From contig OX597818.1 in assembly GCA_951406725.2 (NCBI GenBank), positions 39,184,001-39,248,000 on the forward strand: a DNA stretch of 64,000 bases, read 5' to 3'. The position numbers and the translations under genes are program-made. The notes beneath the pieces were generated by a model. That model ran no database searches and was not told the origin of the DNA. It saw nothing but the letters and a program-made list of their open reading frames with translations. The DNA comes from Octopus vulgaris. Taxonomy: Eukaryota. This document shows, piece by piece, positions 6,961 through 63,035 of the stretch (positions within the stretch are counted from its first letter, which is position 1; each line of letters begins with the position of its first letter).

Positions 6961-9900
6961 CTCCCTCCTCTTCTACTTCTTCTTCCTCCTCCTTCTCTCC
7001 CTCCTCTTTTAATTCCTATTCTTCCTCCTTCTCTCCCTCCTCTTCTACTTCTTCCTCCTTCTCTCCCTCCTCTTCTACTTCTTCCTCCTCCTCCACCTCT
7101 CCCTCCTCTTCTACTTCCTCCTCCTCCTCCTCCTCTTCTACTTCTTCCTCCTTTTCCTCCTCTTCTACTTCTTCCTCCTCCTCCTCCGCCTCCTCCTCCT
7201 CCTCTTCTACTTCCTCTTCTACTTCCACTTCCTTCCCCTCCTCCTCCTCCTCTTCTAATTCCTCTTCCACTTCCACTTCCTCCTCTTCTAATTCCTCTTC
7301 CACTTCCACTTCCTCCTCCTCCTCCTCCTCTTCTTCTTCTTCTTCTTCCTCCTCTTCTACTTCTTCCTCCTCCTCCTCTTCTTCTTCTTCTTCTTCTTCT
7401 TCTTTTTCTTCTTCTACATCCAGCTAAATATTTTGCATTAGAAAGCATCTCACAGTTCGAATCTGCTTACACATGGCGTCACTGGAGGATCTGCATAGCC
7501 CCCCCACACCCTGCCAAAAAATGCTTTCCTTATAATTTCTAGTGACTCTGGATTTAAGGGGAACTGATTCAGTTGACACTTTAGCCCCATCTCTATAAAT
7601 GTGTAGCCAATGCTAAAGTTAGAAATCAATATCATTGGCAGCTCACCTTACTAAGGTGTCAGGTGATGCCCATGGGGGTGCTTGGCTTTTCCAATGCCTT
7701 AGCCTCACCATCACTTGCAGTAATGCCACAGACGTGCTGACATGCTTCCGTAGGTTCCATTGAACCTTGTGGTATGCAACCAATTGAAGTACTTGGTGTT
7801 GTATTGATGTTTAATCTTTTTTTTCTTTTTCTTTCTCCCCCCTCCCTTTTTTTTGGTTTTTTCCTTTACTTTGCCTTTCTTTTGTAAAATATATTTCTGT
7901 TCATATTTTGAATAAAATTAAATATTTTGTTTAGCAAATTTTACACACACACACACACACAAATATATATGTTAAAAGTTAATCAGTTTGAATAAAATTA
8001 TATATTTTGTTTTGAAAATTTTACACACAGACACACACACACATATATATATATATATGTTAAAAGTGAATCAGTTGGTTATTTTAATTTTCTTAATATT
8101 ACACAGGCACCAAACAATGTTATCAGCTATGAAATATATGGAGAACAGTCTGCTTTACAGTATTTCTTCATCAATCCGAACACTGGAGCAGTTAGTCTAA
8201 TCAAGTCCTTGGTTAATGGTCCTAATCGATTTGATGTAAGTTAGTTTTTGTTTTGAGGTTTTGTTTTTGTCTATGTATGACTGTGTATGTACAAGTATGT
8301 ATGTGTGTAGAGGCACACAGCCTAGTGGTTAGAGCAGCGGATTCGCAGTCGAGGGATCACAGATTTGAATCTCAGACCGGGCGATGTGTGTGTTTATGAG
8401 CAAAACACCTAAGCTCCACGTGGTTACAGCAGAAGGTAATGGTGAAATTCTGCTGACTCTTTTGCCACAACTTTTCTCACTCTTTCCTCCTACATTTTGC
8501 AGCTCACCTGTGACGGACCGGCGTCCTGTCCAGGTGGGGAACCTACACACCAAGGAAACCAGGAAACCAGTCTGGGAATTGAAACCATGATCCTCCGACT
8601 GCGAGTCCACTGCCCTAATCACTGTGCCATTGCACCTCCACTAATGAATGTTCCTTCTCGAGCCATGCCAGGCTCATAAGAGCTGGTTTCCCAGTTTTGA
8701 TGATGTGTAAATTCCCCACCTGGATGGGACGCTGGTCCGTCACAGGATTACCTATTTTTGCCAGCTGAGTGGACTGGAGCAATGTGAAATGTAGTGTTTT
8801 GCTCAAGAACACAACACATCACCCAGTCCAGGAATCGAGACCACAATCATACGATCATGAGTTCAACACCCTAACCACTAAGCCACGTGCCACCACAAAT
8901 CCTAAATTAATGTTTTAAAATGTTTATAAATCTGTATATAAATAGTTTTCAAAATGAATAAGTATATGATTTATTCATATAAATATTTTTCTAGCTTTTA
9001 AAAGCTAGATCTTCATCATCCCTGCACTTGTGTTTACATGTGTGGTAAGCAGACATTATATTTCTCAAAGTCAGATGTCTTTTGTAGACCTTTTCCTTAT
9101 TTCAACTCCTCTTGCAATCTTTCAGGTAAAAATCAGGGCGAAAGATGCTGGCATGCCATCTTTGGCTGATACCATGACTCTACAAGTAACAGTTATTAAA
9201 AGTTCTGGACCAGCTGACTTTACCCAACGGAATTATAACATTACCATTGATGAAGCATTCCCTAAATCATCAATGGTCCTTAATGTACAAATAAACTCAC
9301 CAGTAAGTAATTGTTCTTCAATTGTTTTGTTTCTGTTTTCTTTTTATTTTGTTATTTTGTTGTTTATAAATATTGGTTGGTACTTGGTTGCAGAGACAGT
9401 TGAGTACAACCTGGCATTAATACTTGGGATACAAGGCTTTTCTGTGAAGTTTACAAGTCAATGGCAGAACCTCTTTCATGTTCATTAAACTTGCCAAAAA
9501 TTGTAATCAAATCTCAGTGTTGCCTTTAAAAAAAGAATGATGTATTGTATGAGATAAACTCTGCTTTTAAAGAAGGGGTGGCCATGGTGAGGATGCCTTT
9601 GGGTATATTTGACTAAGACTGACCAAGACTAAACAACAGCAAACAAAACTAACACTGAACTTCACTGAAATGAAAATGACCTTTACAAAGTATGTTCATT
9701 AGAGAAGGAAGAATATGTAATAAATGCTATGTGCTGAGTGAAAGAAGGCCAAAGCTGTTTGCCTCTTCCTTTATTAAACAAGCTATGATTTAAAGCATTC
9801 CAGCAATGCTCATATTGCCTTTTTAAATGTATTTTGCTGAGGCAAAGATGACTGTGGAAAAATTTGTAGTAAAAGTAAAAGGAAAATCCGGAAAAAAGTA

Positions 9901-11590: not shown

Positions 11591-11673
<83 letters not shown>

Positions 11674-14600
11674 ATCTTTATATATATATATAGGTATGTT
11701 GATGCAAACAGGAAGGAAAAATGGAACTAAAAATATGAGTATATGTATATTTTTATCAATATTTAGCAGAAGTAACTGAGTGACTCAAGGTCTGAGAGTT
11801 TCGGGTATTGGCACTTACCAAAACTGGATACAGGTGGAACACCTGTGAGTTTATATAGCTGATGATAAATATATTTCGCTCTGGATCATTCCAGATCAAA
11901 TTTTAAAATCCTAATAATGTCATGTGGATAATTCAATAAGCAAATACATAGATAAATAAATAAAGAAATAAGAGAGAAGAAAAGAAAGAAACCTTGTGTG
12001 TATCATCACACATGCACACACACACACACACACTCACATGCACACGCATGCATGTGCACACACACATGTGCGCACACATACACACACAAAAAATCCCGCA
12101 TAAATTTTGCACATAAATATCTATCTTTATATATATGCCCCGTGTTTAAGCTGATGCAATTGAATTCTCTAAATTACATTTATAATGAATTATAGTAAAT
12201 TACATGATTTTGTTTTATTGTTTTAGATGCAATACACCTACAAATTAGTTGGTTATGTACCTGGTACAGAATATTTTGGAATTGCAGAAAATGCTGGTTC
12301 AATATTTGTTAGAAAGGACCTGAAATCTGATACTTTGAATTCACCCACTTACACAGTAAGAGAATTACAGCATTTGCTTTGCTTTGCATGTTTTGCTTAT
12401 CATACTATCATTACCTTCTTGGTCTCCTGTTTTTTTACTTTCTCAACTTTTTGTGGTTAACCCTATACATGTTTGTTTTCAGTGTCAGCAACAGTTGACA
12501 TTGAATATGATAAAATCTGTAGTGAATTTTCTATAACAAATTTAATTGAAATTCTAAGAAATATTTTAGCAATGCTTGCATTTACTCTGTTATAACTTAC
12601 TAGCTGACCATTGTGTCTTGCCCCAGTCCCAGTTTGATTGCTTTTCTGATTCTATGAAATGGATACATTCCATTGACCAGACAGTTCATTTGTTTATCAG
12701 CATCCTCTGGAATGCAGGCTCAGCATGCTTTGGCTGTTAATGTACAAATATACACTGAGGTAGTGCCGTCTGATTTTTCTGGACAGTAAGCATGTTTGGT
12801 CTCTGTTTGTAAGATATGTTTTCCTGCGGCTCATTTCCTTGGTGGATCAGCAGTCATGGGTCAAACTATGATCAAGATTGGATTGAATGCCTTACACTTG
12901 GAATGTTGTTAAATGTTCACTGCACTCTAACAGAGCTGGAAATTCGACTTTAGCAATAGATATGGAGAACTAGTAGCAGGTAAGTGTGATGAGTTCTTGG
13001 GAAAAATTTAGGCTGAGGATGAACTAGGTGACCTGTTTCAAAAGACTTTCTGAACAGATAGAACTTTGGATGATTTTCTAAATTTCTTGACCTGGTAATG
13101 CTACTGAGGGGTACTATCTGTTTAAGATAAACTCTACAGTCATGGACATTCCACCTGGTGGACTGTTCAAGATGTACACAGAGTGATGAAACCATACTTC
13201 ATGCACTCATGCAGTGTCCAAGCTTTGCTGACTTGTGGAGTAATGACAAACAGTTGTTGTCACATGCAGGGTGAATCCATCTATCAACTGAATCCATTGT
13301 GGGGATTACGTCACTACTCACCTTTAACAAAGAGAGGTTGGTGATTATTTTCTGTCTAGTGGCCTTGATGAAAGAATTTGTATTGACAACAAGTCTGAAA
13401 ACATTAAGAACAGACACCTTCTTTGGCTCATTTCAAAAAAATATACTGGTAACTTTCAATGCTAAACTTTTGAAATGCCACTGAAATTTTGGTGCCAGTT
13501 AATCTCTCAAAGAATTCTATCACAAATTTTACTTTGGCTGCTAAAATTATGCATGATAATTTGACTTCACTTGTTAATTTTAGCTATATCATTTGTGATT
13601 TCCTTTACTCATGATTCACTGCAATCACGTTCAACATAATGGTGTACAAAGGCATTTGCATGTTTCCAGTAATTTCCCATATCAGTATAAATCTGTTTTA
13701 TCCTCAAAAACTGGGATTTTAAATTTGACTTAATTATATGATGGTGGTGAAAGTAAATGTGGGATGACATGGGCTTGCAAAATAACTGTCACTATTCTGC
13801 CTCTTGAAAACAACATTTGCATCCCAAAACTCAATGTTAGATTTTGAAAAACTAGACATAAATTTTATGTTGGACTTAAAGCCATAGTTTTTTGTGTAAC
13901 AGTCACAGAAATGCAAGAAGTTAGCTAAACTGTCCTGTGATCCTTCCCTGACAAAAAAAGACCTTGTCAAAGAACTGTAACCAGAGTATTGGATCATGAC
14001 CATGCAGGGGTCTCAATTAATTGTGTTTTGAATTTCATCATGAAGACATTAGTGAAATTAACTGCCATGGGGGTGTCCATGGTTCAACCCCTCGGCTGGT
14101 GGTAAAAACTTTGTCCAGACTTCATTATGCTACTTTGTAACACAAAATTCAATAATTTACAGAGAAAATTAGATGGAATACTTTTGTTTGATCATTCCTG
14201 AAAGGCATTCATGCACGCTTCCATTCCCACATTGTGGTCAGTAATGGAGCATAGTGAAGAAACACTTATGGTTACCAAAAAACAGTTGTTAATTTTGGAT
14301 ACAAAATCAAAAGTATCCTGAATGTAGGAACTCGATTTTTTTGCTACAGGGAGTGGAAAGCCATCCAGCCATTCCAAAATTTTGGCTGTATAACATTCAT
14401 ATCTGCTGCAAACTGGGCACATTGGAAGAAATTTTTGAACCTTTTGTTTATTTTGGGGAGATCATAGAATACAATTTTCTTTGTTCTGATCTTAAATAGT
14501 CAAGCATATTTTAATCTTGAAACATTTCTATATTGTTGTTTTCATCATTGTCATCATCATCATCATCATTATGTTATGCCTATTTTCCCATGCTGGCATA

Positions 14601-17600
14601 GTTTATTTTTTAAAATCTTTCAGTTATTGGTTGAGGCTTCCCAAAACTCAACAAAGAAAAGTGCAACAGTTTTTATAACCGTGAGAAGAAATTTAAATGC
14701 ACCAATTTTCCAGTCACAAAATTATTTTAAGAGTGTGCAAGAGTCAGAAAACCTTGGTCAGATAATCCTTACAGTATCAGCCACAGATTTGGACAATGTA
14801 AGTTTTATTTTATTTTGAATTATGTTATTAAATATGATGGTTTAAAATTTCCTAACCATACACTTACATATCTATATGCATACACTCACACCAGCATAAG
14901 TAATATCATGAATTCTTGCATTAATTTTATCAAATGAATATTAATTTGTTTGATCAACTGGACAACCTACTCATTGAATTAGTGTTTAACTCCCTACCAC
15001 CACCACCACCACCACCATAATCATCATCATCATCATCTAACGTCAGTTTTCCATGCTGACATGGGTTGGACAGTTTGACAGGAGCCGGACTGCTGGAGAA
15101 CTAATCCAAGCTCCCTTCGTCTGCTTTGACATGGTTTCTATGGCTGGATGCCCTTTCTACTGCCAACCAGGATGCAGGGTGCTTTTATGTGGCAGTGGTA
15201 CAGACATTTTTAAATGCCACTGGCATGAGCATGATTACATGGTACCAATATAAGCACTTTTACATGGCACCATTCCACAAACAGATGTACTCATGTAGAG
15301 CCAGCATAACACAGAATAATAAAACTGGCTCTTCCGATTACAAGCACAATTCATCTATTGGGATTTTTCATAGTTTCCACTCAGTTTCACTCACAGGGTG
15401 GAGCCTAGGATGCCATACAGTAGGACTGGACCTGGGGTTTCATGTTTGTTAAGTGAACTTCTTAAACAGTTAACCATGCCAGCATGCAGATACACTCCCT
15501 CACACCTTCACACCCCTCTACCCCCACTGCCACCTGCACACCCGCCCACCCCCATACCCCATCCCCCACACTGATACTAAACCTCCTGAAATAACTACTT
15601 AATATAAATAGTCATTACGTTCTGGTTCAAGTTCCACCAAAGTAGACTTTGCCGTTTATCATTTCAGGGTCAATAAAATAAGTACCAGTTGAGCAATGGG
15701 GTCGATGTAATCGATTTATACCCTCCCCAGAAATTTCTAGCCTTGTGCCAAAATTTGAAATAAATATGTATAGCAATTGACAAATTGTCTGTCCAGTTAT
15801 TCCTCATAATTGCATAGTATAACTTAATTGACTTGTGTAGCAGATTTAATTCTTCATCTGATTTGACATCACCTCCAGGCTTTTAGGCACTTTTTGTGGG
15901 GCCCACTCTGTTGCAAGAAGTTGGGCCAGCTCTCTCGTTTTGGGTCACTTTCTTCCCTTCTTCCTGTAGCACAACATAGATTACCAGTAACCAAGGCAAA
16001 ACAAATATTGCTGTAAGGCAGGCTATTTTTTTTTCGTTATCACAACTTCTTTATTTTCTTTCTTTTGTAGTTTTGCTCTCCTAAGAATTTTGCCTGCAGG
16101 GCAACTGCCCCTAGGGTCCAATACACTCTACACCATTGTCTTCCTCTTTGGACTATGCATAAAAACTTATTAATGCCAGAGACAGATTACATATAGTAAT
16201 AATTAAACTAAAGAATAGCTTATTGTTTTATTTTACTTTCTACATCACACTACTGAATGTACCATCTATTTGTAATAAAGTTATTGCATTGATCTAATAG
16301 GAATGTTATATGAAAATTCATTAAATCTTGTATGATTTATAAAATATTTCCTTTGATTGTATTCTTTACAGGATGTCTTGAAATATAATCTCTCAAAAAC
16401 CGTCACTCCAAGTTTCAAAGCAGAGGAATTTTTCTTTGTTAATTTCATTACTGGTGAGATTAGCTTAATTAAAAGTCTTCGTGGTATTAGTGAGACTCAG
16501 ATTACGGTAAGAAGTTAACAATATACATTTATATTATGATTCTTAGAAATTAAAAATAAAGTGTATATGTTTATTTATTGATATTTCTTGCCTTTTAAGA
16601 AAAGTATGGGTTTTACTAATATGCTTTTATCATACACAAATTCTGCTTTAGTATGTTCATATTCAATGAAGATCATGAGTGGTCTTTAACTTGCACAATA
16701 CCATTCCACTTTTTGAAATATCCTTTCCAGATTTCTTATTAAGGTTTATTATAATCAGATTTTGACACTTTATATGTAGTTTTAAGTTTTACTTTTTAAT
16801 TAGCATCCAACAAATTTTATTGACCAATACAATTATAATAGACTTAAAATAATTACAAATTCAAAATTTATTTCACTGAAGTTATGTTGTAAAACGGTCT
16901 TTAAAAAGAAAACTATGATAAATCAATAGCTTTTTCAAAACCTTGCTAAATCTTTTAATGTCAAAGTATACAGTATACTAAAAACATATCAAAGTATAAC
17001 TACTAGGTATTCTTCTGTATAACCTTCATCTTAATTCTCTTATACTTAAAAGATCTAATTATCAATGGAATATCAATTTTTATCAGAGATAACTGAACCA
17101 TGATCATACAGCTGTTGTTTATTACACTCCAGGAAATTATTGAGGGCAAAATCATCAGCCCAACATCACGAAAGAACTTTGATTCTTTTTCTTTTATCAA
17201 AGAACAAGTTCATAAAAAATCTACTTGCCTATAACCCCAAAGCTAACATAAATATCCACCTATTGGATTTACAGCCACTACCTCCTTCTAACAGAGATCC
17301 ATTGTCAAACTATTAACATCCAGTATTTCCTGCTATTACTACAATGGCTTTGAATTCTGTAAAAATGTCAGCTCTATACCACTCTTAAATCTATTCAATA
17401 TATTTCATTTATTTTTTTCTTTTTCTCTTCATACAGTAGCTTTGTTTCCTATGCTAAACAGCAACAACTCAAATTAAACAGAAAACTTTTAACTTCATAC
17501 ACTTTTTCCAATTCCGTTGTTAACATCCAGTATTTCCTGCTATTACTACAATGACTTTGAATTCTGTAAAAATGTCAGCTCTATACCACTCTTAAATTTA

Positions 17601-23409: not shown

Positions 23410-25034
23410 GCCAACAGGTTTTGTAGTCTGATAGTAGGCCATAACGCCACACCCCTTATGGATGGGAAACCCAGGGTAATCCCATAAACTGGTCTCCCTC
23501 ATTAAAATATTAACTGCTCTACATCCAATGCTGGTTTAACGATTAAGCAAAATAAGCATGTGCTAAGGGCATAAAGGGAAGGAGGGGGCACCACAGAAAT
23601 GGTAAATGGTTTATGGCACAAAAGAAAGCACTTTACATTTGCTAAAATAATATTTGGGATGCCTTTATCTCTACTAAGTATAGATGCAAATCTGTTACCT
23701 AAGATTAATTTTGAGGATCTGATCAAAGACTTTGCAATTCAAAAAAGTAGGAGGAAACTTTTCAAATACAAATAAAGTGGAAGTATACAAAAACAAACAT
23801 TATTTTCCCTCTTACTGTTTTGTTTCATTTTGAAAAATAAAAATTTATTTTATGGTTTGTTATTGTTTATATTTTGAATTACATAATCTTTTATGGGGGT
23901 ACCAAAATCTTTTAACTGCTTAGGGCCTCGATAGGTCTTAATCCAACCCTGTTTGCATCTTGGAGTATACTCCTTCTCTGGATTTATGTTTTTACAAACG
24001 ATATATCATATATATATATATAAATATTGGGTTAAAAACCTTTTTGGAGAGAAAGAGTTGAAGGCTGCCTGTGGGACTCAAATTCTCATCTTACGTAGGC
24101 AAGACACATTCTCATTCATTTTATATGTAAACACACACACACACACAGAAAGAGAGAGTGTGTGTGATGCAGTTATATGCATACAAACACGAGAGAGGAG
24201 TACTTGCTACAAAGCTCAAACAGTACAAAAAGATGATAAATAAGTTATAGTGACTGCATAGTTATAGTAACAGAGAAATAACATCTGACACACTATAAAA
24301 AGAACAAACAAGAAAAAATTCCAGGTTGTTTTAGTAATGTTTCAGCATTGAACAGGTTCTCTGTTTTGCTTCCACTTATATATATACACATAAGTGTATA
24401 TCTTTGTGCATGTGTGTTTACATAAATTTGTTTGCATTTCTTTGTATGTGTTCCTCTGAAGATGTCTAAGGTTTATAATACTATTTAAATTGTATGCTTC
24501 AGTTCAGTGTAACTGCATGTGACAGGAGACAACCACCCAACTGCGACACGGCTTCAGTCAACATCTTTGTTTCTCAAGATAATGCACCAACATTTTTGAA
24601 CACACCTTATAACACCAACATTAACAAATACCATGCCTTCAATAAGCTGGTCTTCTCTGCACGTGGCAATGATGCTGACAACCCTGTAAGTTTTAATTGG
24701 AATTTTTTTTTCTTTTATTTCTGTATTTTTCGTTTTTTTTTGTTTTGCTTTTTTTTTTGGTTTTACTTTTTTCCATAGTTTCATTTGTGGTCAGTGTCCT
24801 TCATACCAAATAAATGCAAAAACTATGATATCTAAATGCTATATATTTATGTATGTATGTATGTATGTATGTATGTATGAATGTACATATATATATGTGT
24901 ATATGTTGTGTGGACGCCCCCAGACAAGGAAGTAGGCTAGCCCAATACGTTGATATAGAGGAAGAAGTCTAGATGTCGAAGAAGTAGAGAAGAATTGAGT
25001 TGAGTAGAAGGCATCCGAATGTGCGCCATAACAG

Positions 25035-52300: not shown

Positions 52301-55300
52301 ACCTGTGCTGGTGGCATGTGTAAAAAGATTCAAGCAAGGTCATTGCCAGCACTGCCTGGCTGCTGGTGGCATGTAAAAGCACCCACTACACTCTCGGAGT
52401 GGTTGGCGTTAGGAAGGGCATCCAGCTGTAGAAACTCTGCCAGATTGAGATTGAAGCCTGGTGCAGCCATCTGGTTTGCCAGCCCTCAGTCAAATCGTCC
52501 AACCCATGCTAGCATGGAAAGCGGACGTTAAACGATGATGATGATGATGATGATGATGAATATATATTATGCTGGACAGACCAGAATTTCACATCATTCA
52601 TGCTATAAACAGTTTTGATCTAGATTTTAATTTAAATATTACCCCTTTGGTACAGTTAGTCCTGGGCAGGGTAGTGCTAAAGCAGCTACTTATTACAAAT
52701 GAATAGGTTAACAATAAAATTACCTTCAATCTTTCCTAAACATATATAGAAAAATTTATTTTAACCTATACATCATCATCATCGCTTAACGTCCGTTTTC
52801 CATGCTAGCACGGGTTGGACGGTTCGACCAGGGTCTGGGAAGCCAGGAGGCTGCACCAGGCTCCAGTCTGATCTGGCAGTGTTTCTACAGCTGGATGCCC
52901 TTCCTAACGCCAACTACTCCGTGAGTGTAGTGGGTGCTTTTTACGTGCCACCAGCACAGGGGTCAGAGGAGGCTTGCAAACAGCCATGATCAGTTGGTGC
53001 TTTTACGTGTCACCGACATAGATGCCAGTCAAGCAGTGCTGGCATCTGCTCCGTTCAGACAGTGCTTTTTACGTGTCACCAGCATGGGTCTCTTAATTAC
53101 AATTTCCATTTGATTTTCATTTTGATGTTGGTGTTGACGTACTTGACTCAATAGGTCTCCTCAAGAACAGTGGGTCACTCTATGATCCAAGGCTAGCACA
53201 GCAGGCCATGCTGTGAGCCATGAACTCACTTCATTTGTCGGGTCTTCAATCATGTTATGTGAATGATTTAAGTCCTTCATATTTCTCATGCTCTTTAACA
53301 TAAAACATAGTTTATTCTTAAAACTACAGAATAATTTTTACTTAATAAGTAATGTTGTGTCATCAGAAATATTTTTGCATTCACTAAATTTAACCTTTCC
53401 CTCTGTATTTTTGTATTATTTTATCTTTTTGCAGGGTAAATCCATACACTATAAACTAACTGGAAAATATCCAGCTTTGTCATTCTTTCAAATAGACAAA
53501 TTGACAGGCGTAGTTTCACTTACTGATACCTTGAAGAAACCAAATATGTTTCTAACTACATTTACCGTAAGTTGTTTTTGTTTAACACACACACAAAACA
53601 AAATATTACTATTCTTTATATTTATTTGTTTTATATAGCTATTTGATAACCATCCAAATATCCAGGTATGGAAAAATAGCTGTTAAAATTTGCATAAAAG
53701 AAGGCATGTGTGTATATGTATATGTGTGTGTGCATGTATGCATTATGTGCATATGTGTACTTGTGTGTGTATATATATATATAAGATAAGAAAATAGAAA
53801 ACGGAGAAGTACTGATGAACAACAATTGACTTACATCAATTATTATTAATTAATTCAAGGCAAATAGACTGCCTCCCATCTAACAGCTGTTTCTGCTTCC
53901 AGTGTTGCCATTGATATGCACAAATATGTAAAATATTAATCATATTTCGTAATAAAACCGATCTGAAACAAGGAGCTTCATCAAAGTGAAAAATAAATAA
54001 AGAGGAAGAGCGTAGAGAGAAAAAAAGGGAAAAGTTGAATATGGTTACAATCATACCATTTTGCTTGTGTCTCTTTGGGCCATTAAGTAAAAGACTAAAC
54101 CAAAATAGCAATTGGTGGGTTAATCCTTTGTACAGGGGTGGGGGGATAGGATGGATAAATAAAAAAAAATTAAAAAAAATATAGTGGGATACAGCAATAG
54201 GTTTTAGTCAGGGAAGGGGTTTTGATACAGTAAGGTTTTATATTAATCATAATAATTTATAATAGTTGTTTGTAGCACTAATTAATAGTATTACTCATAA
54301 TAAAGTGCTAATAGGTTAAATGCAATTTGATTTGCAAGTAGGTGGTTAAGCCTTTCCACCTGTTGTCCGAAGTGAGATAGGCCAAGGTCCAGCGTTTGAT
54401 GTAAATGGTCAGTTGAAATTTAAAAACTAAAGACCAGCTATTGAGACCGTTATACAAGGTAAGATAAATAAATAAATGAATAGGAAGATGGTGTGTTTTG
54501 TAAGGGGCCCTAAAACGCTTCGGATATTAAACATTAGATTTTAAAAAATAATATTATGGGATCTTTTTGGTTTGAACGGCAGGTTTTTAACATAATTTCT
54601 AGGTAACTAAAAAATTTTAAACTTCGTATACTGGTAGAATGTGTTTATAAAACATCTTTTTCTCTTGGCTTTATTGAGAAAATTCTATAGTTTGTAAGAT
54701 ATTTGTTGGTTTTTTTCTTCAATTTCTGCAATTTCAACCAATCAATGGCATCTATTGAGGTAAAAAAAACATTCTGTGCCATCTGAATATGTCCCTCATT
54801 TAAGAAACTGATTGGGTTTATTTACATTTGTGAAGAAAAAAAGATACCCTTCCCCCCCACCCCTAACCCTAATCCTAAAAGAGATTGAAATGCAATAGAT
54901 CGATTCTAGGGTCATAATTATGGGTGACAATTTCATATGACACCACTAGAAAAAAACTGCCATTCAAACCAAAAAGATCCATATTATGGAATAAATATTA
55001 AGAGATGAACAAGCAAAATGGTATGATTACAACCATACTCAACCTTTCCCTTTTTCCTCTCTATACTCTTCTTCTTTATTTATTCTTCACTCTGATGAAG
55101 CTCCTTGTTTCAGATCAGTTTTATTACAAAATATGATTAATATTTTATGTATTTGTGCATATCAATGGCAATACCATACAGAAACAGCTGTTAGATGGGA
55201 TGCAGTCTATTTGTATTGAATAAATGAATGATAATTGATGTAAGTCAATTGTTGTTCATCAGTACTTCTCCATTTTGTGTTTTCTTTAAATTTTGATTCG

Positions 55301-55461
55301 TGATAAGCCCATGTTTATCCTTGTCTTTACCTATAACTTATGAACATAATTTGTTTGCATATGTATGCCCATGGTTAAATATAGGTAATATACTGGTAGT
55401 GTAATGGATACTTCTATCCCTTAGACGTTTATTTTAACCTCTAACTCAGCTAAACTTACAA

Positions 55462-55507
<46 letters not shown>

Positions 55508-55853: not shown

Positions 55854-55904
<51 letters not shown>

Positions 55905-56099
55905 TATACATATATCTTTGTATGTGTGTTGTTGTCGTCATTATTTGTATAGCATTATAGTCTCATAACAGCCAATTAATGTCACTGAACAGTTTCATGC
56001 CACTGTGTGGCACCTTGGGCAAGTGTCTTCTACTATAGCCTCGGGCCGACCAAAGCCTTGTGAGTGGATTTGGTAGATGGAAACTGGAAGAAGCCCATC

Positions 56100-56167
<68 letters not shown>

Positions 56168-57089: not shown

Positions 57090-57134
<45 letters not shown>

Positions 57135-60100
57135 TTGTGTGTCTGTGTTTGTTCTCCTAGCATTGCTTGACAACTGATGCTGGTGTGTTTACGTCCCCGT
57201 CACTTAGCGGTTCGGCAAAAAGAGACCGATAGAATAAGTACTGGGCTTACGAAAAAGAATAAGTCCCGGGGTCGAGTTGCTCGACTAAAGGCGGTGCTCC
57301 AGCATAGCTGCAGTCAAATGACTGAAACAAGTAAAAGAGTAAAAGAAAAAGAGAGAGTATTTCTCCTTCATGAACAAAGACTAATCATCTCAGCACTTTC
57401 TAATCTTACTTGGCCCTTGAGCACTCTGTTTTATGCAATGTATATTCATTAACATCGTTTTGAATTAATCATGCATTATCTCATAGCTTTGAGATTTCAA
57501 TGATATAATTGCTTATTTTTAAAATGGCATCGTAGGGAAGACTGAGAAGCCACGTCTGGCTGATTTAAACTTAAAACAGGTAGAATATTTGAGCCTGATA
57601 TGGTCAGTTTACCAACCATATGATTCTTGGGTGCTTTTGCAGAGTTTGCTGTGTTGCAAGAATTTGGACCTATTTTCTAATTTGAGGATTGTTGTTTCTT
57701 CCCCTTTTTCCTCCACCAATCTTAAAGGCCCTATAAAAGACTAGCTTTCTAATATTAATTAAGCCATAAAAAAGATATTTTTTTTTGTATTTTATATACG
57801 TATCCTTTTATTTCTTCTATTTTTAGTTGGATGTGGTTGCATATCAAGAAAATAACACAAAAGTTTCTACAACGGCTCAGTTAGTGATTAATGTAATCCG
57901 AAACCCTAATGCTCCAATCTGGGACAGTAGATTGTATAATAAATCTATTAGTGAAAACCATCATATCGGTTCATCTGTCTTACAACTGACTGCTGATGAC
58001 AAGGATCAACAGGTTAGTAGCTTCCAGATGTTTCTTTAATGTTTGTTCTACCTTAAGTGATGCTTTTTCATCATCATCATCATCATCCTTTAACGTCCGC
58101 TTTCCATGCTAGTATGGGTTGAATGGTTCAACTGGGGTCTGGGAAGCCAGAAGGCTTTACCAGGCCCAGTCTGATCTAGCGGTGTTTCTACAGCTGGATT
58201 CCCTTCTAGCTGTAGAAACACTGCCAGATCAGACTGGGCCTGGTGCAGCCTTCTGGCTTTTTGTTTCTATAAATTAGGTTTAAACTTGAAAATTTAAACT
58301 TGATAATTTATATTGAATACATTTGAAGAATATGTAATATAAACAAAGAGAAAATAGCTTTTAATTCATACCCTGCTTATTCACCAAAAAAATCATTTAT
58401 TTCTTATTTCTTTGATTTGGCTTTATGACATGAGATCAAATCTTATAGAAGCCTCATATTAAATCACTGTAAACGCTCTAATTGCTAGTATATGAATATA
58501 ACATATAGCCAAATATTGATCAGTTTCATTACTCTTAAATCTAATATAGAGTATCTTTTATTGGAATATAACATGTATGTATATGATACATATATAATAC
58601 AAAATCACATCAAAAATACAAATTCAAAATCAGGAGAAAAAAATGGAAAAAGAAGAACAAAGAATGATAAAAAAAGAAAAGAGTAAGAAAAACAAAAAAG
58701 AAAGAAAAAGCATTAAATCAACACCAAGTGCTTCAATTGGTTGTACACCACAATGTTCAATGGATCCTGCTGAAACAAACCAATACACTTGTGACATTAC
58801 CACAGGTGATGGCGAGGCTAAGCCATTGGTACAGCCAAGCTCCCTTAAAGGCATCATCTGACACCTTGGTAAGGTGAGCCACCAATGATTACAAGAACTT
58901 CACCATTAGTGGCCCTGTTTACAGAATTTGTTTTGCTTCTGTAAACTAGAAACACTGATTTTTTTTTTTTACTTTTTAAAGAACCAGTCAAAGAAAATAT
59001 TTTCTCAAATCCAGAATTTCTGAGTGCATGTTGATACTTTACTCAGTTCCATGGTATTAAGCAGCTAAAAGACAAATCTCCTTCTGGGTAGCATGCCACT
59101 CTATCCCATTCCCAACTGGCAGTAGGCTTAATTCTTTGGTTTAACACCCCATCTGTCCCTCATGTGCCTTTAGCAGAGTTCATTCTGTTGCCAGCATCTG
59201 GTAAGGTCATAGGTCTTTGGATAACTTCCTTCTATCCAGTCATTATGCTCTTCTTCTTGTAACTAAGCCATAAAAAATGTTTTTAAAGGAACTTGCCCTT
59301 CTGCCTGACATCTTTGTGAACTGAAGAGACAATGCAGAATTAAGCATTTTACTCAGAAACTATGAAATGATTGCAACCAACATGGACTTACAACATATGA
59401 ATTTGTAGTCCAGACCCTTCTATACTTTGTGGTTATTTTTTTTCCTTACAATAAATAATTATCCCTGTTTGAATTTTTAAGTCCTACAATTATCTGCAAG
59501 TCATTGATTTGGCAAAGACATATATTTATTTAAACACCTTTTTTGTTCCATAATTATTCCATAATACACACAATCTTATTATTGTGTCAAGATTTGCAGG
59601 TGATTGTTGTTTAGACACAGGTCAGCCCTAGGTGAGCAGACCTGTAATGAATGGTATTCTAACCATAAACATTCCAGCATTCCCTTGGGAATTATGCATC
59701 TAGAAGTACATTATTCAATGGATCCCTTTTCTTGGTGGTGGAGTATAATTTAAAGGATAATTGACTACTACTTCTAGCAGGTCGAGTGACCAGAGTGTGA
59801 GCTATTTGAATTTAAATTGGAAGTCAGTTAACTGATATTTATAGTAAAAAATATCATTTAAAATATATCAAAAGCAAGCCAATAAGATGTTGTTCCAAGA
59901 CTAAAGACAATTCTATTTTGCTAAACATAAGTGTTACAAAAGACTAGAGCTAAGTCTATTTAGCTGAATTAAATAGAATCAATAGCTAAATAGAATTAAC
60001 TCTAATATTTGCTACTAAATCTATGGTACCAAAGGCTAGAGTTAACTCAATTTAGTCAAAGACTAGAGTTAATTCTCTTAAGCAAAATATAAATATATGT

Positions 60101-62593
60101 CTTTGCCAAATCAACAAACCTCTCAATGCACCACATAATCATTCTCTCTCTCTCTCTCTCTCTGCATATGGGTGCCAACAGTCATGGACCTCCATGCCAA
60201 AATGTGAAGATTAATTATTTTTCTTAAGAGGCTCCAATTGCTATCTCCTGGCTCATTTATAGTTTACCTTGCAAATCCTTCTGCTCTCTTGACCTTACCC
60301 TTGGGGCAGAGTCCATTAACTCTGAGACAGAGGAACTGGTTCACTTGCCATAAGGGCATATCCATAAGCCAGGACACTTGTGACAACATGTCACAAGTGT
60401 CAAACCTTCAAATCCTGTATGCCTTCACTGTAGCATATTCTTGTTATTTGGCCCTTGATGGGGACTTTGACAAGTACTATCATTCCAGGTCAGAACAGAC
60501 CTGGTGCAGGGGTGACTGAGGAATAACTATATGAGGGGGTGCTGAAAAGTTCCTGGCTTTAAGGATATCACAAAAGGCCTGGCTGGAGACCCAACCTTCC
60601 AAGTTTTTTCACAGGGCTTGAAAATACTGAAGGACCACTGCAATAAGTGTGTGAATATGAGAGGGGAATATGTTGAATAAAATCATAAGTAATTGATCTG
60701 TCTGTATTTTCTTTTACTCAAAGCCTGGAATTTTTCAGCAGCCCCTCGTATATGCTCCAAACTCTTGAACTCTGACCTCACCACCAGACACAGTTCAATG
60801 CTTTACCTAGGACAATAATCATTTCACTTCGTTTTTCTCAGCTTGGATTAGTTTTCTTTAGCTCAGAGTCTCACAAATTGCAATGACTCTTTGTCATCAA
60901 AAACAAAAAGATTGAGGAACATGCAGAGAAAAAACAAAGAATACATCATTTAAATCTTACACCATAGCTCCTTTTAGTATTCCATGTTTAGAATGAGGGT
61001 GCCTCTTTTCCTTTTAAATATTTTTTTGTTAATTATATTCTGTGCAACATTTGAATAATTTTTTATTAACAAAATGTTATCCTCTATTAATTTATATAAT
61101 CTCTTCTGTTGTCTTTTACAAGTTTCATATTTAAATAATCATTTTTTTATTCTACTATTAGGACAAGTTAACCTACACTTTGGTGTCGCAGAATACCGGA
61201 AGCACAAACTATTTCTTTTTAGAAGAAGACACAGGTATACTTTATCTGCTGAGATCCTTGAAAAATAGCTCTTTCAATGTATTTAATGTAAGTATATGTT
61301 ACTTTTACTTTAACAATTAAAAGTTTAATTTTCCTATAATAATTTCTAGATTTTCAAATTCAAATTCCACAAATGTATGTGTACGTGCACATGCACACAC
61401 GCATACACACACACACACACACACGCATGTACAAAGACAAAAATTTGACTAGATGCAGCATATTTTACAAATCTAGCTGAGGCTTATAAAGATACAGTGT
61501 TATGCATTGGAATCTACTTCTACACAATGATGTACACAAACATAGATTCTGTTTGTAGGGTTTACCAAAAGAGCTTACTTAAATAGCCACTGTCAAAAGC
61601 ACAAGCACAATTCTTTTAATAGTCAGCAGTAGTCTACCCTAGACAAAGGTGAACTGCTAACACACACACACACACACACATACACACACATATTAGATAA
61701 AGATAGTTATAGTCAGTCTATGGGGTTACCCAGGGTTTCACATCCATAAGGTGCTTAGGTTTATGTCGTCTCTTCAAACCCAAATGACTGTTGGTTATTA
61801 GAGGTTATAGACTGTAGACCAGTTATAACTATCTTTATCTAATTACTCAACTGCTCTAATACTTAGATTGTGCTTCACTTTCTGATTTATGATTCACTGA
61901 TGATATACATACATACATACATACATGCATCCTCACTATAGTTAAGGGTGGATGTAAACAAATGCGAATGAATGACAAAATGCAAAAAAAAATATAAAAA
62001 GATATATAACGAAATCTACGGAGAAAAATTTACAAATGATAAAATATAATAATCATATTTTACAAAGTAAAAATTAGAGAGTATATTAACGTAAAAATGA
62101 CATGAAAAATATTGTAAAACAAATGTAAAAATATCGTAAAAAATATGTATGTTCAATCTACCATTGTATAACATGGTCATACTATGTGTTAAGTTCAGCT
62201 TAACGTCGAAAGGTTCGACGAAAATATCTACATTGTCTGTTAATTACATTCGTAACTGTTAAAATATTAAAATATAGAAATTGTAATTGAATTATAATAA
62301 AGTTATCAAGAGTCCTGACGATTGGGGTTGCAGTTAAGACATGTTTCTGTAAAAAAACTGAGTGTCTAGGGAACGTTAAACGCACCTCATGAAACATGTG
62401 TAGAAGAGAAATTTAGAACTGATTAATAAGTATTAAAATAAAATTTTATGATATGGCGTGATGTACATTAGGATTTGATTAATTGCATGGGGATTTCTAT
62501 CTCTAAATAACATATATTTCCTTATCAGGAATAATTCATTTTATTTGAATCCCTGTGACATCAGAATCTTTTATTCCCTAATAAATAAAATAA

Positions 62594-62637
<44 letters not shown>

Positions 62638-62727
62638 GGAGTAAACACATAAATGTGAAACAAGGTGGAAAAAAGGAGTACTCAAATACCAGTGGTAGAA
62701 TAATATGCTTTTGCTGCTTTAAATAAA

Positions 62728-62768
<41 letters not shown>

Positions 62769-63035
62769 AGTGAGGGAGTAAGACAGAGAGAGAAGTAATG
62801 AACTAAAAATAAGTATATAATAAAATATTCTGTATTTTTATATTTTTTGTAGTTGGATGCTAAAGCTTGTGATAATGGAATCCCTGAAAAATGTACAGCA
62901 ATGAGAATCTATATCTATGTACGAAAAAGTACACCTCCCCAGTTCACCACATCTGCATATTACGCTGTTATCAATGATACTTTATCACCACAAGCAACTG
63001 TTCTTTCTGTTACTGCCAGTGATCAAGATTTACAA
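2265..63035 (+). CDS. Internal part (28 exons, 1451 codons, about 14 EC repeats) of a giant non-canonical cadherin-repeat protein (Fat/CDH23-like architecture); both gene ends lie outside the window
   Basis: 28 segments with polypyrimidine-AG acceptors and GT donors. All lengths are multiples of 3 and they join without stops. Recurrent cadherin motifs: AxD, (N)xPxF, GxxV/IxxVxAxDxD, YxI/L, FxIxxxTGxIxL. Many NxS/T sequons. Confidence 0.93.
2670..2865 (+). mobile_element. Old retroposon 3' fragment with (CAA)n-like tail; relatives at about 9460-9645, 30690-30860, 31140-31335 and 59603-59790 (-)
   Basis: Shared degenerate motifs GCTAGAAATAGCA, ATAATGTAGTCCTAGATA, TTTGATCATAGGTC and GCTAAACAACA. 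Confidence 0.55.
3085..3510 (-). mobile_element. SINE of the family with an internal (TA)n/(TG)n microsatellite
   Basis: Diverged reverse-complement match to the intact copy at 56924-57350. Confidence 0.75.
4810..4995 (+). CDS. Exon 2 (long type, 62 codons)
   Basis: ttcag|[34 protein letters not shown]...[16 protein letters not shown]|gtaaga. Confidence 0.92.
5016..5390 (-). mobile_element. RTE-tail retroposon copy, about 20 nt after the exon 2 donor
   Basis: (CAT)n followed by the family core. Confidence 0.8.
5484..6654 (+). mobile_element. Internally deleted mariner element with a nested SINE (about 6200-6600)
   Basis: TA-flanked TIRs TGAGGTAGTATCAAAAAGTTC / GAACTTTTTGATACAACCTCA. Transposase remnants [15 protein letters not shown] and [22 protein letters not shown]. 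Confidence 0.8.
6876..7415. repeat. About 540-bp (CTT/CCT)n polypyrimidine/polypurine compound microsatellite
   Basis: Directly visible. It produces the spurious RG-rich and E-rich minus-strand ORFs. Confidence 0.95.
7630..7860 (-). repeat. Unclassified dispersed repeat (about 190 bp plus A/T-rich end); other copies at 43705-43985 and 58630-58900 in the opposite orientation
   Basis: Shared CACCAAGTGCTTCAATTGGTTG, GGTTCAATGGAACCT, GGCATCACCTGACACCTT and GTGAGCTGCCAATGAT. Confidence 0.75.
7908..8076. repeat. About 80-90 bp tandem duplication containing (AC)n, just upstream of exon 3
   Basis: TTGAATAAAATTA...TTTTACACA(CA)n...GTTAAAAGT.AATCAGTT occurs twice. Confidence 0.8.
8107..8235 (+). CDS. 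Exon 3 (short, 43 codons)
   Basis: acag|[43 protein letters not shown]|gtaagt. Confidence 0.92.
8309..8895. mobile_element. Cluster of tRNA-derived SINE copies (one plus, two minus partial)
   Basis: A/B-box-like heads. The body matches 256-569 and 18820-19067. Confidence 0.7.
9126..9302 (+). CDS. Exon 4 (long, 59 codons; lacks DxD)
   Basis: ttcag|[59 protein letters not shown]|gtaagt. Confidence 0.9.
10140..10265 (-). mobile_element. CR1/L2-type LINE 3' fragment
   Basis: [13 protein letters not shown]...FKNSMFPKI resembles the FFxxRVVxxWNxLP C-terminus of CR1-clade ORF2. Similar fragment at 42085-42335. Confidence 0.55.
10694..11150 (-). mobile_element. RTE-tail retroposon copy
   Basis: (CAT)n, family core and degenerate internal tandem units. 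Confidence 0.8.
12227..12355 (+). CDS. Exon 5 (short, 43 codons)
   Basis: tttag|[43 protein letters not shown]|gtaaga. Confidence 0.9.
13000..14480 (-). mobile_element. Decayed Penelope-like retroelement, reverse transcriptase region
   Basis: Minus-strand motifs in the expected order: [74 protein letters not shown]. Stops and frameshifts present; left boundary uncertain. Confidence 0.8.
14624..14797 (+). CDS. Exon 6 (long, 58 codons)
   Basis: ttcag|[58 protein letters not shown]|gtaagt. Confidence 0.92.
15610..15762 (+). mobile_element. Old SINE family fragment (core GACTTTGCCTTTCATCCTTTCGGGGTCGATAAAATAAGTACCAG); relatives at about 580-720, 3860-4050, 31515-31725, 32750-32900, 35270-35470 (-), 38490-38680 (-) and 39260-39460 (-)
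   Basis: Recurrent degenerate core with B-box-like GAGTTCAAAT. Confidence 0.7.
16372..16506 (+). CDS. Exon 7 (short, 45 codons)
   Basis: tacag|[45 protein letters not shown]|gtaaga. Confidence 0.9.
17313..17726. repeat. Recent 207-bp head-to-tail tandem duplication
   Basis: 17313-17519 and 17520-17726 differ at only a few positions; TTA microhomology at the junction. Confidence 0.9.
18070..18258 (+). CDS. Exon 8 (long, 63 codons)
   Basis: ttcag|[37 protein letters not shown]...[16 protein letters not shown]|gtgagt. Confidence 0.92.
18820..19067 (-). mobile_element. tRNA-derived SINE
   Basis: Minus-strand head GGAGGCACTTGGCTTAGTGGTCAGGG...GGTTTCGATTCC; matches 8660-8895. Confidence 0.75.
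19636..19961 (-). mobile_element. RTE-tail retroposon copy with about 2.5 internal 63-bp tandem units
   Basis: Family core, then repeated TTTTATGTGCCACCGACACAGGTGCCAGACGAGGCTG. Confidence 0.85.
20075..20200 (+). CDS. Exon 9 (short, 42 codons)
   Basis: cacag|[42 protein letters not shown]|gtaagt. Confidence 0.9.
20882..21064 (+). CDS. Exon 10 (long, 61 codons)
   Basis: accag|[61 protein letters not shown]|gtaagt. Confidence 0.92.
21663..21776 (+). CDS. Exon 11 (short, 38 codons)
   Basis: cttag|[38 protein letters not shown]|gtgagt. Confidence 0.87.
22169..22387. repeat. Near-perfect inverted repeat, about 98-bp arms with a 23-nt loop
   Basis: 22169-22266 is the reverse complement of 22290-22387 with a few mismatches. 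Confidence 0.9.
23526..23951 (+). mobile_element. Internally deleted hAT (Tip100-like) element
   Basis: Degenerate TIRs CAATGCTGGTTTAA / TTAATCCAACCCTG; 8-bp flanks TCTACATC / TTTGCATC; remnant [31 protein letters not shown] resembles the end of the hAT dimerisation domain. Confidence 0.7.
24503..24685 (+). CDS. Exon 12 (long, 61 codons; Cys pair)
   Basis: ttcag|[36 protein letters not shown]...[13 protein letters not shown]|gtaagt. Confidence 0.92.
25372..25841 (-). mobile_element. Young RTE-tail retroposon copy with five 62-bp tandem units
   Basis: ACAGGTGCC recurs at 25555, 25617, 25679, 25741 and 25803 (period 62). Confidence 0.9.
26172..26297 (+). CDS. Exon 13 (short, 42 codons)
   Basis: tgcag|[42 protein letters not shown]|gtaagt. 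Confidence 0.9.
26371..28265 (-). mobile_element. 5'-truncated, decayed RTE-clade LINE (RT, C-terminus, 3' UTR and (GAT)n tail)
   Basis: [49 protein letters not shown], and C-terminal [17 protein letters not shown]. Ends in the family core plus (GAT)n. Confidence 0.88.
29098..29317. mobile_element. piggyBac-type MITE
   Basis: TTAA on both sides (29094-97, 29318-21); termini CCTTTT...AAAAGG. Confidence 0.65.
29470..30070 (+). mobile_element. SINE (microsatellite-core family) interrupted by a 223-bp local duplication at 29677-29899
   Basis: The 5' half (29470-29675) and 3' half (29900-30070) are collinear with the intact copy at 56924-57350. Confidence 0.75.
30144..30323 (+). CDS. Exon 14 (long, 60 codons)
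   Basis: ttcag|[60 protein letters not shown]|gtacga (weaker donor). Confidence 0.88.
31759..32619. mobile_element. Mariner derivative built from two inverted 5' halves
   Basis: TA-flanked TIRs. The plus arm encodes [16 protein letters not shown]...TCSEAYTK and the minus arm encodes [27 protein letters not shown]. Confidence 0.85.
32987..33106 (+). CDS. Exon 15 (short, 40 codons)
   Basis: ttcag|[40 protein letters not shown]|gtgagt. Confidence 0.9.
33131..33815 (-). mobile_element. Heavily 5'-truncated copy of the RTE LINE (ORF end plus 3' UTR)
   Basis: Collinear with 26371-27045. Confidence 0.85.
34808..35196 (-). mobile_element. tRNA-derived SINE (CpG-rich, young)
   Basis: Minus-strand head GGAGGTGCAATGGCCCAGTGGTTAGGGCAGCGGACTCGCGGTC...GGTTTCGATTC. 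Confidence 0.8.
36107..36283 (+). CDS. Exon 16 (long, 59 codons; DxD replaced by HRN)
   Basis: tacag|[59 protein letters not shown]|gtaaga. Confidence 0.9.
36580..36985 (-). mobile_element. SINE, microsatellite-core family
   Basis: Reverse complement of 56924-57350; (AGTAAAAG)n tail. Confidence 0.85.
37771..37893 (+). CDS. Exon 17 (short, 41 codons)
   Basis: ttcag|[41 protein letters not shown]|gtaagc. Confidence 0.92.
38722..39236. mobile_element. Unclassified insertion bracketed by (TAA)n tracts, possibly the end of a microsatellite-targeting non-LTR element
   Basis: Block of higher GC between (TAA)n at about 38683-38720 and about 39237-39248; no coding motif recognised. Confidence 0.35.
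39738..39920 (+). CDS. Exon 18 (long, 61 codons)
   Basis: tacag|[61 protein letters not shown]|gtaagt. Confidence 0.93.
40075..40373 (+). pseudogene. Pseudo-exon fragment: copy of the 3' half of exon 20 plus its downstream intron and SINE head
   Basis: [35 protein letters not shown] versus exon 20 [38 protein letters not shown] collinear with about 44827-45126. Confidence 0.88.
40520..41090 (-). mobile_element. SINE, microsatellite-core family with expanded (TACA)n/(TA)n
   Basis: Flanks match the family; internal repeat about 230 bp. Confidence 0.8.
41153..41460 (+). mobile_element. tRNA-derived SINE
   Basis: TGGCCTAGTGG...GAGTTCGAATC head and (CAA)n tail; matches 256-569. Confidence 0.8.
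41830..42024 (-). mobile_element. Short RTE-tail copy embedded in (TAA)n
   Basis: Family core at 41893-42024 with (TAA)n on both sides. Confidence 0.75.
42085..42335 (-). mobile_element. CR1/L2-type LINE 3' fragment
   Basis: Minus strand reads [28 protein letters not shown], then a UTR running into (ATT)n. Confidence 0.6.
42821..42952 (+). CDS. Exon 19 (short, 44 codons; only LDRE-like motif, PLDRD)
   Basis: ttcag|[44 protein letters not shown]|gtaagt. An internal in-frame GTAAGG is also present at 42908. Confidence 0.9.
43050..43480 (-). mobile_element. Diverged SINE, microsatellite-core family
   Basis: CCAAATTCACTCACAAAGCATTGGTC and CATTGGACTGTGG..GCTGGGG motifs. Confidence 0.7.
44749..44931 (+). 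CDS. Exon 20 (long, 61 codons)
   Basis: ttcag|[61 protein letters not shown]|gtaatt. Confidence 0.9.
45810..45935 (+). CDS. Exon 21 (short, 42 codons)
   Basis: tgcag|[42 protein letters not shown]|gtaaga. Confidence 0.9.
46669..46924. mobile_element. hAT (Charlie-like) MITE
   Basis: Termini CAGGAGTTCTCAGCC / GGTTGATAAACCACTG; 8-bp flanks CTCTATAT / CTCTTCAT. Confidence 0.65.
47125..47307 (+). CDS. Exon 22 (long, 61 codons)
   Basis: ttcag|[61 protein letters not shown]|gtaatg. Confidence 0.92.
48110..48349 (+). mobile_element. Non-LTR retrotransposon 3' fragment with A-rich tail
   Basis: [38 protein letters not shown]-stop, a short UTR, and a poly(A)-like tail at about 48329-48349. Confidence 0.65.
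48813..48941 (+). CDS. Exon 23 (short, 43 codons)
   Basis: tgcag|[43 protein letters not shown]|gtaagt. Confidence 0.92.
49505..49997. mobile_element. Two RTE-tail copies in inverted orientation (49505-49750 minus, 49808-49997 plus)
   Basis: The family core appears forward and then as its reverse complement, separated by a short microsatellite. Confidence 0.85.
50412..50830 (-). mobile_element. RTE-tail retroposon copy
   Basis: (CAT)n plus family core. Confidence 0.8.
51472..51663 (+). CDS. Exon 24 (long, 64 codons; AAG acceptor, lacks DxD, 3' end ambiguous)
   Basis: ttcaag|[64 protein letters not shown]|gtgagc. Alternative in-frame donor GTAAGA at 51628. Confidence 0.8.
51850..52558 (+). 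mobile_element. Long plus-strand RTE-tail copy with internal degenerate tandem units
   Basis: Ends GGTTGGCGTTAGGAAGGGCATCCAGCTG...GCATGGAAAGCGGACGTTAAAC(GAT)n. Confidence 0.85.
52771..53250 (-). mobile_element. RTE-tail retroposon copy, close relative of 5016-5390
   Basis: (CAT)n plus core; internal sequence collinear with 5016-5390. Confidence 0.8.
53435..53566 (+). CDS. Exon 25 (short, 44 codons)
   Basis: tgcag|[44 protein letters not shown]|gtaagt. Confidence 0.9.
53788..55286. repeat. About 285-bp inverted repeat pair (53788-54075 and 55000-55286), probably Penelope-type pseudo-LTRs
   Basis: The arms are reverse complements throughout. Each carries (C/T)TGATGAAGCTCC...GAAACAGCTGTT. Confidence 0.8.
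54559..54980. mobile_element. MITE with about 24-bp TIRs and a perfect 8-bp TSD (Merlin-like by its GG termini)
   Basis: ATATTATG|GGATCTTTTTGGTTTGAACGGCAG...CTGCCATTCAAACCAAAAAGATCC|ATATTATG. The superfamily call is inference. Confidence 0.85.
55995..56385 (+). mobile_element. 5'-truncated SINE, microsatellite-core family
   Basis: Collinear with 56985-57350. Confidence 0.85.
56924..57350 (+). mobile_element. Full-length tRNA-like SINE with internal (TA)n(TG)n and (AGTAAAAG)n tail
   Basis: Head GGCGCAGGAGTTGCTGTGTGGTAAG...GGGTTCAGTCCC; about 10 relatives in the window. Confidence 0.85.
57827..58012 (+). CDS. Exon 26 (long, 62 codons)
   Basis: tttag|[62 protein letters not shown]|gttagt. Confidence 0.92.
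58068..58259 (-). mobile_element. Truncated RTE-tail copy ending in a fold-back inversion
   Basis: 58144-58195 is the reverse complement of 58208-58259 (4 mismatches in 52). Confidence 0.85.
59504..60114. mobile_element. Candidate MITE with perfect 25-bp terminal inverted repeats
   Basis: TTGATTTGGCAAAGACATATATTTA / TAAATATATGTCTTTGCCAAATCAA; internal AAAGACTAGAG subrepeats; no TSD seen. Confidence 0.55.
60532..60748 (+). mobile_element. Mariner-derived MITE
   Basis: TA-flanked TIRs TGAGGGGGTGCTGAAAAGTTCC / GGAATTTTTCAGCAGCCCCTCG; transposase C-terminal remnant [14 protein letters not shown]-stop. Confidence 0.85.
61162..61287 (+). CDS. Exon 27 (short, 42 codons)
   Basis: attag|[42 protein letters not shown]|gtaagt. 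Confidence 0.9.
61692..61843. repeat. Small inverted-repeat element with perfect 20-bp arms
   Basis: ATTAGATAAAGATAGTTATA / TATAACTATCTTTATCTAAT. The interior resembles the reverse complement of about 23453-23487. Confidence 0.7.
62853..63035 (+). CDS. Exon 28 (long, 61 codons; Cys pair)
   Basis: tgtag|[61 protein letters not shown]|gtaaga. Confidence 0.92.

Follow-up and report, generated by a model that had tools for sequence, protein, structure and literature searches.

A two-domain super-repeat in a giant cadherin gene of Octopus vulgaris

A 64-kb stretch of Octopus vulgaris DNA, referred to as the window throughout, was analyzed and found to encode cadherin domains of two classes, a and b, which alternate along the array as a two-domain super-repeat. 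The window probably represents the mid-section of a giant cadherin gene whose a and b domains are shared with gastropods, bivalves, a brachiopod and a nemertean and were duplicated as pairs before these lineages split. Its product would be a filament with at most one calcium ion per junction, in which one-calcium joints alternate with looser ones.

Gene model and two-domain alternation in the window

Six-frame reading and enumeration of splice sites revealed 28 exons on the + strand of the window, all of phase 0 and short and long by turns. AG/GT ends, an open frame and a length divisible by three were found for all 28. The short exons (38-49 aa) encode the middle of a cadherin domain. Each long exon (58-64 aa) covers the two final strands of a domain and the linker behind it, together with the strands that open the following domain. 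The coding content amounts to 13 whole cadherin domains of 97-108 aa each, and the gene runs beyond both window ends. The exon numbering of a preliminary description of this DNA was recovered, with exon 4 from 9126 and exon 28 to 63035; the alternating array also includes exon 2, upstream of the start given there (9126). The features are listed below in window coordinates; all exons are based on the splice model, and further evidence is given in brackets.

2265..2411, +, exon 1, short, mid-domain, upstream-zone type with long loop (78% identical to P0002)
4810..4995, +, exon 2, long, class a (class axis)
8107..8235, +, exon 3, short
9126..9302, +, exon 4, long, class b, without DxD; conserved landmark junction, predicted calcium-free (relatives)
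12227..12355, +, exon 5, short, GxxP type (motif scan)
14624..14797, +, exon 6, long, class a, without FG-loop Asp (ligand count)
16372..16506, +, exon 7, short, Asp-start
18070..18258, +, exon 8, long, class b
20075..20200, +, exon 9, short
20882..21064, +, exon 10, long, class a
21663..21776, +, exon 11, short, Asp-start
24503..24685, +, exon 12, long, class b; sole b junction with complete site-3 ligands (ligand count)
26172..26297, +, exon 13, short, GxxP type (motif scan)
30144..30323, +, exon 14, long, class a
32987..33106, +, exon 15, short, Asp-start
36107..36283, +, exon 16, long, class b, no DxD (ligand count)
37771..37893, +, exon 17, short
39738..39920, +, exon 18, long, class a
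40074..40374, +, decayed copy of the exon 20 3' half and the following intron, in intron 18 (82% over 301 bp with 44826-45126)
42821..42952, +, exon 19, short, Asp-start
44749..44931, +, exon 20, long, class b
45810..45935, +, exon 21, short
47125..47307, +, exon 22, long, class a
48813..48941, +, exon 23, short, Asp-start
51472..51663, +, exon 24, long, class b, no DxD (ligand count)
53435..53566, +, exon 25, short, GxxP type (motif scan)
57827..58012, +, exon 26, long, class a
61162..61287, +, exon 27, short, Asp-start
62853..63035, +, exon 28, long, class b (relatives)

A six-frame search with a profile partly seeded on the window itself returned the 28 exons and one extra piece only, none of them on the - strand. 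P0002, the closest database protein, matched 17 of the 28 exons, in order, at 72-91%. The gap of 11 exons in P0002 is likely a gene-model error; these exons thus rest on splice signals and on collinearity with more distant relatives. A single exon used as query among proteins of at most 2000 residues gave no match. In 16 sequencing runs, considered RNA only by guess, 26-42% of the words of a stretch consisting of 30% exon were present; these values carry no weight in the gene model.

The window protein belongs to the cadherin superfamily, having consecutive EC domains with the cadherin fold. Of 18 single exons, 7 were matched by PF00028 at E ≤ 0.1, and on P0002 this profile hit 17 stretches. 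Furthermore, a three-domain stretch of P0002 was folded with eight relatives, giving a model with a pLDDT of 89.7 and a pTM of 0.55. Every structure match listed for this model was a cadherin (best Z 18.8); a single domain fitted within 1.8 A over 106 residues and three domains at 8.5 A or more, and the best superposition on the listed cadherin chains reached a TM of 0.47, with no control fold. The cadherin fold was confirmed for all three domains of the model, which at a pTM of 0.55 cannot fix the angles between them.

The two-domain super-repeat in the window gene was confirmed. Among the 14 long exons, no balanced split did better than the odd/even one (2 of 3432 labellings, equal to 1 of 1716 splits); the odd/even split was also the best for whole domains (1 of 1716 balanced splits), and for the short exons this labelling ranked 14 of 3432. 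The parity signal was carried by both halves of the long exons. An exon was closer to the next but one of its kind than to its direct neighbor for 11 of 12 long and 8 of 12 short exons; thus, the lack of such a preference, which would speak against a pair repeat, was not observed. A tree of the 13 domains separated odd from even domains into the two clades that had been predicted, with weak support (78/79). An expected autocorrelation peak near 205-210 aa was found at 207, but the top peaks of this ungapped analysis were 103, 104, 420 and 105; the two-domain spacing is 201-213 aa. Identity was 31% inside one class, 25% inside the other and 23.5% between classes, the 25% class being scarcely more alike internally than across classes, and the signal in plain identity is weak. 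An axis learned from non-cephalopod relatives only, as described below, sorted all 14 long exons of the window alternately.

The motifs by which the preliminary description had told the exons apart were upheld to different degrees. An initial Asp occurred in all six short exons named for it and in none of the other eight. The Tyr motif was present in 5/6 exons of its class, absent from the sixth, and found in 0/6 of the other class; NxN(A/P)P separated the two long-exon classes equally well (5/6 vs 0/6), with the full NxNAPxF in 2/6 only. DQR (3/6) and TATATV (2/6) had been overstated as consensus. The GxxP type applied to two of the five short exons named (13 and 25), not to the other three, and also to exon 5, which had not been named.

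Several observations concern the non-coding sequence. The copy in intron 18 (window 40014-40435) spans 301 bp at 82% without gaps, has its source about 4.75 kb downstream and is flanked by a 62-bp direct repeat (82%). Amino-acid identity is 54% over 35 codons and the copy is likely outside the protein; since about half of its codons carry a changed amino acid, it looks neutral. A 207-bp tandem duplication (98%) is located at window 17313-17729, and dispersed repeat families make up 28% of the window, one of them with up to ~20 copies. A Mariner-type transposase fragment (PF01359, E = 1.4e-05) lies on the - strand at window 63598-63768; pieces of similar appearance near 5650-6160 were without a Pfam match.

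Family-wide alternation and age of the array

A profile of the long exons was used for a search from which the top 150 proteins were taken, and a second search added named relatives. The nearest relatives were found in gastropods and bivalves (Haliotis, Patella, Elysia, Aplysia, Biomphalaria, Pomacea, Gigantopelta, Plakobranchus, Solemya, Tegillarca, Crassostrea, Mya, Sinanodonta, Potamilus) and also include giant cadherins of the brachiopod Lingula and the nemertean Tubulanus. The family was defined here as lophotrochozoan giant cadherins with shortened Arg-Asn linkers. The window gene shares its non-canonical linkers, its a/b alternation and a collinear landmark junction.

To obtain a class axis, 226 aligned units of nine non-cephalopod proteins were decomposed into principal axes without labels; the first of these, used here, accounts for only 4.2% of the variance, and the underlying alignment profile was seeded with units of the window, P0001 and P0004. 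Alternation on this axis was found in all 25 family proteins, comprising gastropods, bivalves, Lingula and Tubulanus (p ≤ 0.006), 20 of which were outside the training set. Of 18 giant cadherins from outside the family (Fat, Dachsous, sponge), 17 were without alternation on this axis. Nematostella P0003 alternated weakly (p = 0.006) but was rejected as a family member, having canonical linkers and recent four-domain copies. Profiles built on the window had detected alternation in 9 of the 150 relatives at p ≤ 0.005; this partly circular result was superseded by the unsupervised axis. In several family proteins the register was held for runs of at least 20 units. An upstream zone (exons 1-3, window 2265-8235; P0001 residues 1-2180) has longer loops after DxD, and in the relatives alternation is present there too, though weaker.

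The preliminary description had suggested that the array grew by duplication of an A-B domain pair. This is supported by a tree in which 59 units, taken from five proteins, required one class change as compared to about 20 in shuffles, though at a branch support of only 60. Alternatively, the array may have grown by single domains, with a two-fold geometry or a periodic partner selecting the alternation afterwards. Such a course would fit the concentration of diagnostic columns at junction loops, and also the separate two-domain periodicity, with different motifs, of sponge and amphioxus cadherins, according to which a two-domain period is able to arise more than once. However, the parity signal extends to the short exons and to either half of the long ones, and the units of five proteins split by class with a single change; growth by single domains is therefore considered quite improbable.

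The proteins P0031 (Sycon), P0065, P0157 (Dysidea) and P0261 (Branchiostoma) are unrelated giant cadherins alternating canonical and non-canonical linkers. Among these, a canonical linker was followed by another two domains on in 7/14, 6/13 and 12/14 cases and one domain on in 1/15, 1/14 and 5/15; in Dysidea, four domains are favored. Periods observed in other giant cadherins were three (P0143), four (P0003, P0006, P0100), five (P0135, P0139), six (P0066) and eight (P0020) domains.

Comparison of the window with the abalone protein XP_046564129.1 revealed a single best register with a mean score of 150; scores were 105-110 when shifted by two or four units and 80-89 at odd shifts. In this best register (18), the positional partner ranked first within its class for 11 of 14 units. 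This domain-for-domain match indicates that the expansion is ancient. Furthermore, the layout is common to two paralog groups that both include gastropods and bivalves; thus, the array is older than both the gene duplication and the gastropod/bivalve split. The paralog tree placed the window in neither group, as a long branch. These comparisons support a pair expansion that is ancient and family-wide, not peculiar to the octopus genome.

The repeat could also be explained by a recent tandem expansion of four-exon blocks confined to this lineage, or by conversion that is still going on between like exons. The decayed partial exon copy in intron 18 indicates that local copying occurs. Yet the introns of the window showed no block-scale homology, their self-matches being dispersed repeats, and the exon-to-exon DNA matches reached 58 and 29 bases only. 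The domain-for-domain collinearity with gastropods and bivalves effectively refutes a recent origin, which we regard as highly improbable.

The landmark junction (exons 4-6, window 9126-14797) lacks DxD in the window and in all seven collinear relatives covering it, and the FG-loop Asp after it is replaced in five of the six relatives with a residue at this position. In P0177, P0178 and P0182 the landmark was found twice, 17-18 units apart, which suggests that a block of ~18 domains was duplicated, as a level above the two-domain repeat. P0178 and P0184 (Haliotis rubra, equally long contigs) abut in register and look like one split gene.

The history of pair duplication is well supported by these sequence comparisons and may be outlined as follows. 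An early lophotrochozoan cadherin with two diverged neighboring domains would have grown by duplicating this pair, that is, four exons, and phase-0 introns throughout would have helped. Such introns allow in-frame duplication of any number of exons; the kept register thus points to selection and history, and selection would have kept the class-specific junction residues. Growth of cadherins by blocks of repeats was reportedly discussed by Hulpiau and van Roy in 2011.

Junction chemistry

The roles of calcium ligands in cadherins were taken from known structures. The canonical junction motifs DxNDN and LDxE were both absent from the window (0/14 each). Among non-cephalopod family units they occurred in 2/156 and 6/156, respectively; in six control proteins, whose arrays are canonical or mixed, between about a quarter and nine tenths of the units had them. 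Since both motifs are missing throughout, calcium sites 1 and 2 are predicted to be lost at every junction. Site 3 was scored as complete when the linker Asn/Asp, DxD and the FG-loop Asp were present. In the window, this applied to 7/7 type-a but only 1/6 type-b junctions (Fisher p = 0.005). An alternating junction chemistry, as had been proposed, was thus found at site 3; the ligands of sites 1 and 2 are gone in both types, and the site-3 contrast is much weaker at the matching positions in other molluscs.

Among non-cephalopod alternating pairs, site 3 was complete in 72/85 type-a and 38/84 type-b units. At positions collinear with the window in other molluscs, landmark excluded, it was complete in 46/53 type-a and 32/37 type-b units; P0004 and P0188, whose register is uncertain, were excluded from this count, and their inclusion changes type b to 37/47. 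For type b without the landmark, the window has 1/5 as compared to 32/37 in other molluscs (p = 0.005); this value is optimistic, as the homolog rows are related and their p-values overstate independence. Type-b junctions mostly keep site 3 at the matching mollusc positions, so the alternating chemistry in the window is probably in part lineage-specific erosion. As both types mostly keep it there, an alternation of firm and loose joints is not family-wide at these positions. The erosion of type b may be a by-product of fast evolution, the window being a long branch.

The class-diagnostic columns are mostly found in the linker and in what we take, from general cadherin topology, to be domain-end loops. 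They are 60-96% conserved in one class, though the domains are only ~30% alike. Ancestral class differences concern mainly linker Asn vs Asp, the loop after DxD, and motifs of the FG and CD loops. In 11 of the 14 long exons of the window, Arg or Lys precedes the linker residue, a feature near-absent in the controls; the conserved Arg/Lys before the linker Asn may be a stand-in for the lost ions.

The alternation could also be a historical relic of ancient growth by pairs, with both junction types behaving alike and the type-b site-3 loss in the window being drift. This agrees with the retention of site 3 at both junction types at collinear positions in other molluscs and with the long branch of the window; moreover, the two-domain unit is the commonest duplication unit according to passages of a survey of repeat proteins, in which multi-domain duplication is common and cadherins peak at five (PMC1553488). 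However, class-specific residues are still kept at 60-96% in one class among domains ~30% alike, the ligand losses in the window all fall on one junction type (0/7 vs 5/6, Fisher p = 0.005), and the register persists over at least 20 units in several proteins. A mere relic thus appears unlikely.

We favor pair duplication followed by selection on the junctions. In the octopus lineage, type-b joints would then have lost more ligands, giving a sharper alternation and further calcium loss. The product may be a long, compliant, low-calcium adhesive tether with alternating joints, anchored by one transmembrane helix of the kind seen in relatives; its mechanics, calcium number and joint stiffness are inferred from the residues at the junctions. 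A bolder version, which we consider doubtful, assumes a lophotrochozoan filament of at least 70 domains with low-calcium joints throughout, in which the pair would be a fixed module (a zigzag spring or two-domain zipper) and Arg would replace the ions. In octopus every second joint would be calcium-stripped, giving a softer tether, possibly in the suckers; sponges and amphioxus would have acquired their alternation separately. If this were true, a two-domain period would be a recurring design for giant cadherins.

Relation to known cadherins

A 77-domain octopus cadherin enriched in suckers is cited from Wang and Ragsdale 2017 in a passage of PMC6339937; 'over 70' domains are given in a passage of PMC6062618, and the name CDHX in one of PMC6110919. 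Like the window family, CDHX is a giant EC array in a mollusc. Tiling of relatives gave ~74 units, 34 upstream of the window (P0178) and 40 to the membrane (P0179), the upstream part being possibly inflated by the 18-domain block duplicated in some paralogs. The similar numbers (~74 vs 77 domains) are suggestive of the window gene being an ortholog or paralog of Octopus bimaculoides CDHX; molluscs have at least two collinear paralogs, the window was placed in neither, and CDHX was compared by description, not by sequence. The passages on CDHX in PMC6339937, PMC6110919 and PMC6062618 mention no super-repeat or linker chemistry. A full-text literature search, with key octopus-cadherin papers outside its coverage, found no two-domain super-repeat or linker chemistry for this family.

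Databases mostly label the family members 'protocadherin Fat 4-like', which is a misnomer. Fat, Fat4 and Dachsous have long EC arrays, as does the window family, but their linkers are mostly canonical and they do not alternate on the class axis. Fat and Fat4 carry EGF and laminin-G domains before the membrane, whereas no Pfam hits to EGF or laminin-G were obtained in the relatives P0004, P0009, P0010, P0014, P0054 and P0128. Those relatives that reach the membrane, outside the window, have one hydrophobic helix and a shared tail of their own; the membrane-proximal region of P0004 used as query matched itself only, which is uninformative on the range of this tail.

According to a passage of PMC7547225, with which the ligand roles used above agree, the EC5-6 junction of PCDH15 is without DRE and DXNDN; it is flexible, and a single calcium is bound there, at site 3. 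By sequence, the type-a junctions described here match its site-3-only ligand set (7/7 a, 1/6 b). However, PCDH15 has one such junction among mostly canonical ones and the window no canonical junction at all; in addition, the window linker is one residue shorter, with Arg/Lys before Asn (11/14). A passage of PMC8325961 describes DN-cadherin, Fat and Dachsous as bending where their linkers are free of calcium. A likeness to titin and nebulin, also proposed in the preliminary description, was found in sequence periodicity only: position within the unit predicts similarity in all of these arrays, but the unit here consists of two domains, and no periodic partner is known.

In tip-link cadherins, bending is controlled by single low-calcium junctions; in the family described here, all junctions examined are predicted to be low in calcium, and two junction types alternate along dozens of domains in three phyla. 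The two-domain register may be used to repair fragmentary gene models of giant molluscan cadherins. Furthermore, a protein of at least 70 domains would be reduced to two junction types, solvable as domain pairs, which would make its mechanics and function testable.
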